Assembly: GCA_963422745.1 (NCBI GenBank)
Contig: OY730477.1
Span: 2,232,880-2,296,879, forward strand
Direction of reading: 5' to 3'
Source of the DNA: Acidimicrobiales bacterium
Lineage (GTDB): Bacteria; Actinomycetota; Acidimicrobiia; Acidimicrobiales; Aldehydirespiratoraceae
Length of the DNA stretch: 64,000 nt
Each line of letters begins with the position of its first letter. Position 1 is the first letter of the stretch. This document shows positions 54,535-58,967 of this stretch, in pieces. The notes below the pieces were generated by a model. That model was not told the DNA's origin and ran no database searches. It was given only the letters and a program-made list of their open reading frames with translations. Position numbers and translations under genes: made by a program.

Positions 54535-55878
54535 ATGGAAAAGCGTTGGTTGGCGTGGTTTGTTGTTGTGGGGGTGTGCTTCGGGGTGTGGAGTGTTGGC
54601 GAAGCCCATCCGGTCTCGGCGGCCGACACTGACTCAGCGGAGTCCGAAACCGTTGTCTCGCAGAGCGCGTCGGGCCCAGCTTCGGACAGTATTGACGGAA
54701 CATCACCCGGTGAGGTTCCTGATCTGAGTGTCACCCAGCGTGGCTGCCAGCGCGATGAAAGCCCGCATGCATATTACAATCGGTGTGTTCCCTGGTTTTG
54801 CCAGTACGGACGCAGCAGCGATGGTACGTGCGAACCGGACTCTCCGTCCTTGCGCTATCACCGTTTAACCTGCAGTTCCTACAGCACCGACGCCGACGCG
54901 GCGGCCTACCTTGACATGGATCCCGACCACAAGAATGACCGGGCTGTCTGCCCGCCTCCGGGATTGTTCCTCGCCAGCCCCGGTACCGACGACTGGCCGG
55001 TATGGGGCTTCGAGAAGAGCATCGCCGATGATTACGGAAAGGTCGTGGTCGAAAAGTCCGGTGAATGCAGCGGACCTGCGGACAGCTTGGGTCTGGACTT
55101 TCTCGATACCGGTCCAACCTGGGATTTCCAGATACCGTGTAAGGCGCATGATCACTGCTTTGATCTTATCAGAGCCGGATTATCCGGAACCGTTTCTAGC
55201 CGGGATTGTGACGCACGGATGAATGATCTCATGAAAGCCGACTGCAACAACCGACGTGGAATAGACAAATCCGGTTGCAATAGGGTACGGAAGGGGGTGC
55301 GAATTGGTGTGTGGCTTTCTAGTGTTGGTCCTGATCCGGGGCTTGTGAGGTTGGTGAATGACGGGTCCGGTATGTGCGCCGATATCGATCGTTCTGTGCT
55401 TCCGAACGGTCAACTCTCCGACGGTCTCGACGACGGCACGGTACTGTTGCAATGGCCATGCCGAGTGTTCAGCGCGGAGAATCAACAGTTCCGCCTGCGG
55501 CCATCCACTCACCGGGGCTACTTCGAGATCCGGCCCGAGCATTCAATTCATCTCGACAAATGCATCACAGCTGTTGCAACAACCCTCGTTCTGGCAACCT
55601 GCGAAAGACAAGTCAAGTGGTTTTCATTCAGTCAGGAAATACCTTCAGCTCCAGCTCAATCATTCAAGGTCACCTCTGTTGCCAACAGCGACCGGTATAT
55701 TTTCACAAGCAGGGCCCATGAGAAAGCCTGCTGGGCAGTACCATCAATCAACGGGACCGCCACACGCGGAAGCGGAACCTACATACCCGGAAAAGGAACC
55801 GCATTACTTGCAACATACTGTACCGATAGCTATCTCGATCAATACCAAATATGGAGAATCGAAAATGCCAATTCATAA
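54535..55878 (+). CDS. secreted PLA2-like / ricin-B-lectin protein, copy B (candidate toxin)
   Basis: Signal peptide MEKRWLAWFVVVGVCFGVWSVGEAHPVSA. GECSGPAD...WDFQIPCKAHDHCFDLIRAGLSGTVSSRDCDARMNDLMKADC lines up with the prokaryotic PLA2 segments (C-x-x-x-P-D ... C-x-x-H-D-x-x-[YF] ... D-x-x-[FM]-x-x-[DL]-M); His-Asp codons at 55147..55152. The C-terminal beta-trefoil has NQQFRL / AQSFKV / QYQIWRI. Confidence 0.8.
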   Translation: MEKRWLAWFVVVGVCFGVWSVGEAHPVSAADTDSAESETVVSQSASGPASDSIDGTSPGEVPDLSVTQRGCQRDESPHAYYNRCVPWFCQYGRSSDGTCEPDSPSLRYHRLTCSSYSTDADAAAYLDMDPDHKNDRAVCPPPGLFLASPGTDDWPVWGFEKSIADDYGKVVVEKSGECSGPADSLGLDFLDTGPTWDFQIPCKAHDHCFDLIRAGLSGTVSSRDCDARMNDLMKADCNNRRGIDKSGCNRVRKGVRIGVWLSSVGPDPGLVRLVNDGSGMCADIDRSVLPNGQLSDGLDDGTVLLQWPCRVFSAENQQFRLRPSTHRGYFEIRPEHSIHLDKCITAVATTLVLATCERQVKWFSFSQEIPSAPAQSFKVTSVANSDRYIFTSRAHEKACWAVPSINGTATRGSGTYIPGKGTALLATYCTDSYLDQYQIWRIENANS

Positions 55879-56596
55879 ACGCTGCATACCCCTTGGAGCT
55901 GTGCTGATCATTGCGCTGATAGCTACGGGATGTGGCGCTAGCTCGGAAGTAGTGCAGACAACTGCAGAACCAACGGAAACCGAAATCATCGCCACCACCA
56001 CGATAGCGGTACCTTCAAGCACCACGATATCTTCTACAACTGTTACACCGCAGCCTGGCGTGACTATGCCAACCCCGACTGTCACAACCACCACATCCGG
56101 TCCGTCCAGCACCCTCCCGGCCACAACCGTAACAACATCAGAACCTGAAGAGATGGAACCATATGTATTGCATGAGTTCTTCACAACCAATCCCATCGAC
56201 CGTTCCACTCCGAGCGGTACATTTTGCTGGGCGATTTGGGAACGGTCGAGAATGCACGCAATCAGCGGATTCGAGGTGTTTTTTGCCGAACACCCGAGAC
56301 AAGAAATAATTTATCCAGCAGATTACGATCACGACTACACTCTTATCGTTGCGCTGAAAGAGATGTCCAAACCGGAAATGGTCAGTATCGCCGATGATCC
56401 ACAGCTCTCCAAGGAATTTCAACGCCTCGCCAAAGTCTTCTTTGAACAAGTGCGAACTGAAATTGAACTACTAGAAGAGATAGGACCTGATGGACTAGAT
56501 TACGCCAATTATCCCTTCTTTGAGATTGAAGATTCACCATTCGACAAAGCCCTCTTTGAAGGAGAAACTAACTCAGACGAATGCTACCAACTCTAG
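55865..56596 (+). CDS. lipoprotein B1 (cassette lipoprotein family)
   Basis: MPIHKRCIPLGAVLIIALIATGCGAS (lipobox), then the conserved C-domain. The ATG lies 14 nt inside the toxin-B ORF (..atggagaatcgaaaATGccaattcaTAA). Confidence 0.85.
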   Translation: MPIHKRCIPLGAVLIIALIATGCGASSEVVQTTAEPTETEIIATTTIAVPSSTTISSTTVTPQPGVTMPTPTVTTTTSGPSSTLPATTVTTSEPEEMEPYVLHEFFTTNPIDRSTPSGTFCWAIWERSRMHAISGFEVFFAEHPRQEIIYPADYDHDYTLIVALKEMSKPEMVSIADDPQLSKEFQRLAKVFFEQVRTEIELLEEIGPDGLDYANYPFFEIEDSPFDKALFEGETNSDECYQL

Positions 56597-56642
56597 CTAG
56601 CAGACGACTCAACCATTACCATTGATCATTGCCCCGACAAAT

Positions 56643-57428: not shown

Positions 57429-58172
57429 ATGCCAATTCATAAACGCTATATCCTCCCTGGAGCTGTGCTGATCATTGCATTGCTCGGTTCTGGATGTAGC
57501 TCGGATTCCGAAGAAGAGACAAACGAAGTAGAGACAACAGCAGAACCAACGGAAACCGAAATAACTGCCACCACCACGATAGTGGTACTATCAAGTACTA
57601 CTATCTCTACTACAACCGTGACACCGCAGCCTACCGTGACTGTGCTGACCCCGACTGTCACAACCACCACATCCAGTCCATCCAGCACCCTCCTGACCAC
57701 AACCGTAACAACATCAGAAACATCGGAGAGGGAGCCATATGTATTGGATGAGTTCTTCATAGTCAATCCCATCGACCGTTCCACTCCGATCGGTACAATT
57801 TGCTGGGCGATGTGGGAATGGGTGAGAATGCACGGAATCACCGGATTAGAGGTGGCGTTTGCCGAACACCCGAGAATTCAAATCATATATCCAGCAGATT
57901 ACGATCACGACTACACCCTTATCGCAGCGCTGAAAGAGATATCCAAACCGGAAATGGTCAGTATCGCCAATGACCCACAGCTCTCCAAGGAATTTCAACT
58001 CCTCGCCAAGGTCTTCTTTGAACAGGTGCGAACTGACATTAAACTAATAGAAGAGATAGCACCTAATGGACTAGATTACGCCAACTATCCTTTCTCTGAG
58101 CTTGAAGACATGCCATTCCTACAATCCTATTATGAAGATACAGATGCCCCATTCCCATGCGCCTCTCTCTAG
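57429..58172 (+). CDS. lipoprotein B3 (cassette lipoprotein family)
   Basis: MPIHKRYILPGAVLIIALLGSGCSSDS. The C-domain is nearly identical to C3 (62558..63298). Confidence 0.85.
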   Translation: MPIHKRYILPGAVLIIALLGSGCSSDSEEETNEVETTAEPTETEITATTTIVVLSSTTISTTTVTPQPTVTVLTPTVTTTTSSPSSTLLTTTVTTSETSEREPYVLDEFFIVNPIDRSTPIGTICWAMWEWVRMHGITGLEVAFAEHPRIQIIYPADYDHDYTLIAALKEISKPEMVSIANDPQLSKEFQLLAKVFFEQVRTDIKLIEEIAPNGLDYANYPFSELEDMPFLQSYYEDTDAPFPCASL

Positions 58173-58256
58173 CTAGCAGACGACTGAGCCATTACCATTG
58201 ATCATTGCTCCTAAAAAATATGCCCACACTTAGACAACTACATACTGCCTGGAGCT

Positions 58257-58967
58257 GTGCTGATCATTGCGTTGCTGGGTTCTGGATGTGGCTCCGGCTC
58301 CGAAGTAGTACAGACAACTACAGAAACAACGGAAACCGAAATCATCGCCACCACCACGGTAGCGGTACCGTTGACTACGACCATATCTACTACAACTTTG
58401 ACACCGCAGCCTGGCGTAACCTTGCCGAACTCGACTGTCACAAACACCACATCCAGTCCGACGAGCGCCCTTCCGGCCACAGCCGTAACAACATCACAAC
58501 CTGGGGAGGTGGAACCAGTAATATTGGATGAGTTCTTGCTTGTCAATCTTATCAGCCGTTCCACTCCGATCGGCACACTGTGCTGGGCGACGTGGGAGCA
58601 GATGAGAATGCACGTAATCAATGCATTTGAGATTATGGCTGATCAAGAACCCAAATTTCAGATAATATATCCAGCGGATTACGATCACCACTACACCCTC
58701 ATTGATGCGCTGCAAGAGATAACAAAACCGGAGATTGTCAGCATCGCCGACAGCCCACAGTTCTCCAAAGAACTTCAACTCTTCGCCAAAGCCTTCTTTG
58801 AACAGGTGCAAGTAGAGATGAAACACATAGAAGAGATAACATCCTATGGATTTGATTACACCGAATATCCTTTCCCCGAATTTGAAGAACTGCCACATAC
58901 TGAAGCCTTCGTAGAGGAAATGGAAGCTCATCCAGACGAATGCATGCTTTCCGAGCCCGAGGATTAG
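58257..58967 (+). CDS. lipoprotein B4 (cassette lipoprotein family); the canonical start is out of frame
   Basis: The family ATG at 58220 is 37 nt (not a multiple of 3) upstream of the in-frame GTG 58257. The homologous fragment at 63346 has one A fewer and is in frame. From GTG the signal peptide is only MLIIALLGSGC. Confidence 0.6.
   Translation: MLIIALLGSGCGSGSEVVQTTTETTETEIIATTTVAVPLTTTISTTTLTPQPGVTLPNSTVTNTTSSPTSALPATAVTTSQPGEVEPVILDEFLLVNLISRSTPIGTLCWATWEQMRMHVINAFEIMADQEPKFQIIYPADYDHHYTLIDALQEITKPEIVSIADSPQFSKELQLFAKAFFEQVQVEMKHIEEITSYGFDYTEYPFPEFEELPHTEAFVEEMEAHPDECMLSEPED

Follow-up and report, generated by a model that had tools for sequence, protein, structure and literature searches.

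What is the role of a variable family of lipoproteins whose genes stand in tandem behind the gene of a secreted, toxin-like protein? The question is raised by a 64,000-nucleotide (nt) stretch of DNA from an Acidimicrobiales bacterium (Aldehydirespiratoraceae; GenBank assembly GCA_963422745.1, contig OY730477.1, positions 2,232,880 to 2,296,879), hereafter the window. Open reading frame (ORF) listing, translation and a 10-sequence alignment (alignment A1) identify ten paralogous lipoprotein genes in it, four at 55865-58967 and six further ones at 61009-63298 and 9124-11708, all on the + strand. Each of the three clusters is headed by a gene for a protein of ~450 amino acids (aa) (54532-55878, 59670-61022 and 7726-9131). 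We number the resulting cassettes A (54.5-59.1 kb), B (59.7-63.5 kb) and C (7.7-11.9 kb), and the lipoproteins A1-A4, B1-B3 and C1-C3. The analysis described here leads us to propose that the lipoproteins are probably a new family of extracellular immunity proteins, directed against secreted toxins in which a predicted phospholipase A2 (PLA2) is joined to a ricin-type lectin.

The pairing of the two genes extends well beyond the window. A PLA2-ricin gene followed directly by a family member was found in 11 cassettes, the three of the window plus eight from other genomes or metagenomes (L001, from an Acidimicrobiales metagenome-assembled genome (MAG), L002, L004, L007, L008, L011/L012, L013 and L014). 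An adjacent downstream gene conserved across lineages, as expected of a toxin-immunity pair, is thus seen in all 11. The lipoprotein start abuts the stop of the toxin gene or overlaps it (by 14 nt in the window); judged by the called coordinates, overlaps also occur in L007, L011, L013 and L014. All three loci reached from the toxin side carry a lipoprotein, and five of the seven reached from the lipoprotein side carry a toxin. More specifically, L001 and L004 each hold a toxin and two lipoproteins, L002 combines an 805-aa toxin with lipoprotein P0015, and the toxin gene of L014 overlaps that of P0034. At L008, L011/L012 and L013, where the toxin homologs are 35-47% identical to those of the window, the toxin stop is overlapped by a gene for a lipoprotein of 187-226 aa, each with an LCW motif and a terminal Cys. 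At L007 (GCA_024228555.1, JAAETI010000565.1, 1-9585), the toxin gene overlaps that of P0031, and the cassette has resolvase genes and a Tn3-family DDE transposase at its flanks, which suggests that it is carried by a transposon. Across 10 cassettes, PLA2-domain identity and the identity of the adjacent lipoproteins are correlated (Spearman 0.50, Mantel p ~0.002), and the lipoproteins diverge much faster (5-53% identity versus 34-89% for the PLA2 domains).

The protein encoded by the head gene begins with a signal peptide (MKKRWLAWFVVVGVCFGVWSVGEA), which from its sequence we infer to be of the Sec type, and ends in a ricin-B lectin (PF14200, cutoff 25.6 bits, scores 34.2 and 28.3 bits; E=4.2e-8 for toxin A). 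Its central domain carries the invariant motif WDFxxPC(K/Q)AHDxC(F/Y)DL. In a PDB profile search, an alignment of eight partner catalytic domains (alignment A3) matched best the PLA2 of Streptomyces violaceoruber (1faz/1kp4, E=0.051), over the helix that bears His-Asp, and PF09056, the prokaryotic PLA2 family, matches six of the eight aligned domains (best E=5.2e-6). A search with this alignment returned 44 homologs, 21 of which carry precomputed PF09056 plus ricin domains; one is named 'Ricin-type beta-trefoil lectin domain/Prokaryotic phospholipase A2' by the Joint Genome Institute. H95 and D96 are invariant in alignment A3, and every one of the 11 cassettes has C-[KQ]-[AS]-H-D-x-C. The Asp of 'DCD', for which L001 alone has His, corresponds in the alignment to that of 'SRIDSAFYEDM' in 1faz, which we take to be the catalytic Asp85. 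In L004, the Cys-to-Cys spacing is 16, which we take to be that of the S. violaceoruber PLA2, so this loop is probably homologous to the PLA2 Ca2+ loop. As a whole, the partner is predicted to be a divergent PLA2-lectin fusion. When it is set beside the Tox-PLA2/PF09056 proteins (S. violaceoruber PLA2, 1kp4/1faz), the alignment covers the C-x-x-H-D helix as well as the Asp and Cys positions that come after it, whereas the fusion to ricin-B and an extra Cys in H-D-x-C are particular to the proteins described here. The CxxHxxxYxN motif of Tox-PLA2 is partly kept, with F/Y at +4 and Leu for Asn; two further differences, in the Pfam score and in the DxC[ST] motif, are weighed below.

The toxin homologs also vary at their ends. 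Several of those found elsewhere (L001 3043-5070, L002 5552-7969 and P0009) bear Cys-rich repeats in long N-terminal arrays, such as CxxGQxYxSxYGGCRPTTCxxGRTSTGxC, with Cys/His-rich repeats in L001. The window toxins keep one Cys-rich module only, and the L002 toxin has an extra C-terminal domain.

The lipoproteins themselves share one layout, namely a lipobox signal peptide, a Thr/Ser/Pro linker and a conserved domain of ~150 aa with two invariant Cys. The window paralogs are 37-81% identical to the first copy, A1, a similarity that, judged by the alignment, is far beyond chance. Invariant columns comprise the lipobox Cys23, S-T-P-x-G-x-x-C121-W-A-x-W-E, Y-P-x-D/N-x-D-H-x-Y-T, P-E, F-F and C240, the last of these Cys lying ~3-10 residues before the C-terminus. 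Under a PROSITE PS51257-type rule (K/R in the n-region, an uncharged h-region, [LIVMFWSTAG](2)-LIVMFYSTAGCQ-[AGS]-C and the Cys at position 15-35), nine of the ten window paralogs pass, with their Cys at position 23. In B2 and C2, no K/R follows the chosen ATG, and in-frame upstream starts supply a Lys. The tenth paralog, A4 (58220-58967), fails through a frameshift. A 1-nt insertion after its start, an extra A (GACAACT versus GACACT in all other copies), puts ATG 58220 out of frame and leaves an in-frame GTG at 58257 without an n-region, so the copy is probably defective. The ten intact paralogs of the initial annotation, which was made from the sequence alone, therefore exist as ten copies, but the fourth (58257-58967) is not intact at its N-terminus. 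Outside the window, a signal peptide with a final Cys is present in all 25 relatives checked. The strict rule is satisfied by 20 of these; in the remaining five, evident signal peptides end in ...NVGC, ...CSAC, ...VSAC and, twice, ...AASC. The lipobox that the initial annotation had recognised is thus well borne out, and the window proteins are predicted to be lipid-anchored.

The linker and the Cys pair behave differently across the family. Window linkers measure 59-88 aa and contain 45-63% Thr+Ser+Pro, which agrees with the 60-90 aa first proposed; those of relatives are not Thr-rich but Asp/Pro/Gly-rich in P0015-P0018 and Ala/Pro/Val/Ser-rich in L008 and L011. There are exactly two Cys per domain copy, as had been claimed, and relatives with two domains have four, at matching positions. 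Actinobacteria are reported to favour disulfides in exported proteins (PMC2823432). Because of this preference and of the two Cys per domain, an intradomain disulfide probably ties the tail to helix 1 of the model described below, between the Cys at the start of that helix and the C-terminal Cys. The core motifs of the initial annotation stand as invariant columns in the alignment. Across the wider family, YPADYDH turned out to be specific to the close subfamily. The nearest other genome has LPANLDPDYT, and insertions replace the motif in remoter relatives. A role for YPADYDH as a metal or catalytic site was accordingly rejected; not being conserved beyond the close subfamily, the motif is neither a family-wide nor a catalytic signature.

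The C-terminal domain has no family match in Pfam, NCBIfam, PADLOC or PHROGs. Weak profile matches (E >= 0.01) fall solely on the signal peptide and the low-complexity linker; one of them, a PHROG 'superinfection exclusion' entry (E=0.01), was rejected on this ground. None of 28 family members matches Pfam at E<=0.01, and sequence and profile searches of the PDB returned only chance matches, none significant. A 48-residue 'MIF4G domain-containing protein' peptide in the PDB profile search (E ~0.01-0.03) was set aside as a short helical chance match. An AlphaFold2 model of the domain from a 28-sequence alignment reached a predicted local distance difference test (pLDDT) score of 82 and a predicted template modelling score of 0.77 (an earlier model had a pLDDT of 75). 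In this model, a short N-terminal strand region bears the NxxDRSTPxG motif, a long helix 1 (residues 22-47) begins at LCWAxWE, two short helices (66-83) surround ALxEIxKPE, and a long helix 4 (89-112) bears LSKExQLFAKxFF, followed by a lower-confidence tail that ends at the second Cys. Foldseek with the pLDDT-82 model against the PDB gave no relative (best E=1.4, template modelling (TM) score <0.4), and neither the pLDDT-75 model against the PDB nor the pLDDT-82 model against BFVD gave anything better than E ~0.8. Helical matches to a BAG domain and to CopM-like proteins were rejected as chance helical-bundle overlaps (TM<0.55 on short targets). The model points to a small helical domain with no enzyme-like signature and no detectable known relative in fold or profile. 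The family accordingly looks as unrecognised as the initial annotation had claimed, and the profile and structure searches it had proposed returned no confident match to a characterised family unrelated to toxin neutralisation.

A word-indexed search of 5.8 billion proteins recovered only the source genome's own copies, which include an eleventh paralog (P0006) elsewhere in the same 3.33-Mb genome. When each GTDB species was represented by one genome, the scan added just one genome, that of an Acidimicrobiales MAG (OY730440.1). Among 1.84 billion cluster representatives, scanned exhaustively with HMMER, only 30 proteins reached E<=0.001. One of these, a repeat protein, is spurious. The remaining matches have in common an N-terminal signal peptide that ends in Cys, a linker of low complexity, the motif (S/T)(T/S)PxGxLCW, a helix with L(S/P)xExxxFAxxF and a near-terminal Cys. 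Two of the sampled loci differ in their surroundings. At L005 6001-10009 (ENA ERZ23496419 scaffold_264), P0021 contains two tandem domains with four Cys and is followed by an LRR/SLH surface protein. At L016 2407-6342 (ENA ERZ25072854 ctg56688), two family members are each followed by a multi-transmembrane protein, with a DUF4190 protein after the second; the members adjoin a DDE transposase, and no PLA2 gene is present. L016 looks like a different, repeated module of lipoprotein plus membrane protein.

Within the window, the two genes have fared differently. In cassette A, the toxin gene (54532-55878, +) appears intact and encodes the signal peptide, one Cys-rich module, the divergent PLA2 domain (CKAHDHC) and the ricin-B lectin. 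It is followed by A1 (55865-56596), A2 (56643-57383; identical to the public protein P0001), A3 (57429-58172; identical to P0007, with a C-domain ~98% identical to that of B3) and the frameshifted A4. In cassette B, toxin B (59670-61022, +) is likewise intact and 83% identical to toxin A, and is followed by B1 (61009-61746), which has an A4-like core, B2 (61778-62506), which resembles A1 and A2, and B3 (62558-63298), which resembles A3. Cassette C presents another picture. Toxin C (7726-9131, +) is a probable pseudogene, with the signal-peptide segment (7726-7779) in another frame than the body (7806-9128), and in the body 29 aa are inserted ahead of the WDF motif and a Tyr stands in place of one Cys. 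Of two further toxin genes, only 3' remnants are left, one at 9836-10063 (70% identity to toxin B residues 378-450), directly upstream of C2, and one at 10847-11005 (the C-terminus of a ricin domain), directly upstream of C3. The three lipoproteins beside them are intact and retain all motifs, namely C1 (9124-9822; divergent, 39% identical to A1), C2 (10053-10817; identical to P0003) and C3 (10995-11708; divergent, 37% identical to A1); a remnant of a lipoprotein C-terminal part (11729-11890, +; 53% identical to the C3 tail) closes the cluster. Orphan immunity genes beside decayed toxin modules, a further mark of toxin-immunity systems, are thus found at 7.7-11.9 kb. That a lipoprotein is kept where no working toxin remains is in keeping with immunity and speaks against a foldase or display role. 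Toxin neutralisation, which the initial annotation had implied, gains strong contextual support from the PLA2-ricin partner, the 11 cassettes and the intact lipoproteins beside decayed toxins.

The cassettes also show signs of recombination and diversification. Cassettes A and B each end in a truncated lipoprotein 5' fragment followed by similar downstream DNA, and their sequences identify them as segmental duplicates. More specifically, the fragment at 59034-59102 (+) is followed by one resembling the 3' part of the thiamine pyrophosphate (TPP)-enzyme gene (52599-54413), whereas the truncated gene at 63346-63486 (+; 46 codons, repeat family D9) is 97% identical to the A4 5' end and lacks the A4 frameshift. 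A 114-nt repeat, 82% identical, follows both cassettes (59279-59392 versus 63507-63620), and together with the TPP-enzyme-like 3' fragment at 59100-59160 it marks the segmental duplication. The paralogs are mosaic, in that A4 and B1 have a nearly identical core and different tails, and B1 and B2 a common linker and different cores. Among close paralogs, mean column entropy is 1.00 in the second half of helix 1 and 1.35 in the C-terminal tail, against 0.24-0.55 in the conserved core. The ratio of nonsynonymous to synonymous substitution rates (dN/dS, Nei-Gojobori) is 0.96-2.1 in a segment that includes the second half of helix 1, 0.6-2.0 in the tail and 0.3-0.5 in the core. The two stretches singled out initially as variable, after CWA.WE and at the C-terminus, are the ones with the highest entropies and with dN/dS of ~1-2, a pattern that is suggestive, and only suggestive, of diversification in these surfaces. 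Furthermore, the lipoprotein genes have a GC content of 0.46-0.50 (~0.5 at third codon positions, GC3) and the toxins one of 0.54-0.56, compared with 0.62 (GC3 0.68) in a flanking gene. Cassettes at most other loci are likewise GC-poor relative to their surroundings, and a Tn3 transposase, resolvases and an integrase adjoin cassettes elsewhere. These features point to a foreign composition and to mobility of the cassettes.

We propose that the toxin, with its signal peptide, Cys-rich module, PF09056-like PLA2 with His-Asp dyad and ricin-B lectin, would be exported by Sec and would hydrolyse membrane phospholipids of a target cell reached through the lectin. The target may be a bacterial competitor or a eukaryotic cell. 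The downstream gene would be translationally coupled to the toxin gene, and its product exported and lipid-anchored through the lipobox Cys on the outer face of the producer's membrane. There, a flexible low-complexity stalk would hold out the ~150-aa helical domain, probably stapled by a disulfide. This domain may bind and block the PLA2 domain there, the one site at which a producing cell would be exposed to damage from its own toxin. Extra and orphan copies, having diversified in the tail and the second half of helix 1, would widen the protection to the variant toxins of neighbours.

Several points weigh against this proposal. The window PLA2 domains lie below the PF09056 gathering cutoff (toxin A at E=0.08 and 14 bits versus 29.4). 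The DxC[ST] motif given for Tox-PLA2 (PMC3482391) is absent; its place is taken by G-[EDF]-C-[ST], and catalytic competence is not certain because the first Asp is a Gly. A4 is a defective copy, and two sampled family loci, L005 and L016, have no PLA2 gene nearby. The frameshifts, seen in an assembled genome, could be sequencing errors, and the dN/dS values come from few sites and are confounded by gene conversion. Finally, binding and inhibition are deduced from genomic context.

Other roles are conceivable for a lipoprotein encoded beside a phospholipase. The lipoproteins could be membrane-anchored steric chaperones or foldases, or helpers of secretion or maturation, for the exported PLA2. 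Lif foldases are encoded downstream of lipase genes in Pseudomonas and Burkholderia, and they too consist of an all-helical domain joined to a membrane anchor by a flexible linker of low complexity. The gene position, directly downstream of a lipolytic enzyme gene and translationally coupled to it, corresponds as well, and a Cys-rich PLA2 domain may need help in folding. A foldase would nevertheless hardly be expected in three or four divergent copies per toxin or with dN/dS raised in particular segments, and without a client it should decay, whereas intact copies stand beside frameshifted or deleted toxins. Moreover, neither a Pfam lipase-chaperone match, since no Pfam family of any kind matched, nor a lipase-foldase structure by Foldseek was found. 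We regard a foldase role as unlikely.

A second possibility is that the lipoprotein docks or displays the toxin, either through the lectin on a possibly O-glycosylated stalk or through the PLA2 on the helical head, so that the toxin, inhibited or not, is stored on the producer surface or kept there for delivery on contact. Actinobacteria O-mannosylate regions such as the window linkers, which are 45-63% Thr/Ser/Pro, the partner always carries a lectin domain, and the pairing is conserved. Among relatives, however, the linker composition is not conserved, while the helical head and the two Cys are, and toxin-less orphan copies are hard to explain by display alone. A lectin bound to a glycosylated stalk, at which the initial annotation hinted, is in particular disfavoured by relatives whose linkers are not Thr-rich. 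All this makes docking or display improbable. In a more elaborate and equally improbable variant, the lipoprotein would do more than protect, and the helical head would clamp the PLA2 while the ricin lectin binds an O-glycosylated Thr-rich stalk, giving a surface array of pre-loaded, inactive toxin that is released by a competing glycan on the target cell, be it a bacterium or an animal host. If true, Acidimicrobiia would possess a toxin display system that depends on Sec, is triggered by contact and uses a hitherto unseen fold.

Least probable of all is an unrelated variable surface lipoprotein (an adhesin, an antigenic-variation or a ligand-binding protein) that merely shares the toxin's mobile cassette, for although L005 and L016 have members without any PLA2 gene, the arrays are tandem, variable and low in GC, and TilA-type lipoproteins of Staphylococcus aureus were first interpreted as host-interaction factors (PMC10730906), the overlapping stop/start adjacency persists down to 34% PLA2 and 5% lipoprotein identity, toxin and lipoprotein distances are correlated, and toxin 3' remnants precede orphan copies.

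The immunity reading can be placed beside well-characterized systems. Functionally, the proposed system is closest to that of S. aureus, in which the phospholipase A toxin TslA is neutralised outside the cell by the tandem, variable DUF576 lipoprotein TilA (PMC10730906). On the immunity reading, both cases combine a membrane-damaging phospholipase A toxin, acting outside the cell of a Gram-positive-type organism, with a lipid-anchored extracellular neutraliser, and in both the immunity genes form tandem arrays of paralogs, variable in number and sequence and shaped by recombination. In contrast, TslA is an alpha/beta-hydrolase lipase exported by type VII secretion with helical partners, whereas the toxin described here is predicted to have a PLA2 fold, a ricin lectin and a Sec signal. 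TilA belongs to DUF576 and is encoded upstream of the toxin, whereas the present lipoprotein has no Pfam match and is encoded downstream.

Next closest are the Tle/Tli pairs of type VI secretion systems (T6SS), as exemplified by Tle3/Tli3 (PMC9860674), a phospholipase effector with a periplasmic or lipoprotein immunity protein. These pairs would share with ours a phospholipase effector with an adjacent immunity gene, whose product resides in the compartment of toxin action and is often a lipoprotein. Tli immunity genes are also often duplicated. The Tle/Tli pairs differ in that they are Gram-negative, T6SS-delivered and of other toxin and immunity folds. A third parallel is offered by LanI-type lipoproteins such as NisI and SpaI, which are anchored at the surface and intercept a secreted, membrane-active lantibiotic made by the cell itself. 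Here too, an anchored lipoprotein would intercept the producer's own membrane-active agent before it reaches the producer's membrane; the LanI ligand, however, is a small peptide and not an enzyme, and the folds are unrelated, with no match in sequence or structure. Pfam, PDB profile searches and Foldseek against the PDB showed no similarity of the present family to the TilA/DUF576, lipase chaperone (Lif) or Tli families, and we found no description of a PLA2-ricin/lipoprotein pair in the literature. The novelty would lie in a new protein family within a known functional category, toxin immunity.

The flanking genes scanned are ordinary metabolic ones (P450, TPP enzyme, amine oxidase and short-chain dehydrogenase), and the 10 flanking window ORFs scanned contain no genes of the T6SS, the type VII secretion system or another secretion system. 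Elsewhere in the window are a membrane protein of the Acyl_transf_3 family with inserted ankyrin repeats (6047-7627, +) and a large sulfatase (14696-16963, +). Ankyrin-repeat insertions and sulfatases are associated with animal or sponge symbionts, and the two genes hint at an animal-associated symbiont, for example of a sponge. An 836-aa ORF in a patch of GC 0.54 (21657-24167, -) has an unusual architecture of three PF03118 (RNA polymerase alpha C-terminal domain) stretches and HHH_5.

The locus also illustrates how such genes escape annotation. Public gene calls (P0002, P0004, P0005 and P0006) cut several paralogs of the 55865-63298 region to 112-117 aa, starting at an internal Met. A likely cause is long antisense ORFs created by the Thr-rich linker, for example that at 55873-56208 (-). 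The lesson for annotation is that shortened paralogs go together here with a lipoprotein family that is nowhere named.

In a survey of polymorphic toxins from 2012, Tox-PLA2 is listed without an immunity protein (PMC3482391). The lipoproteins described here are a first candidate immunity family for PLA2-fold toxins and would fill this gap. With them, the known repertoire would also gain a Sec-exported PLA2-lectin toxin whose immunity partner is a lipoprotein. Secreted PLA2 enzymes are of industrial and medical interest, and the ~150-aa helical domain may be a new inhibitor fold for them.

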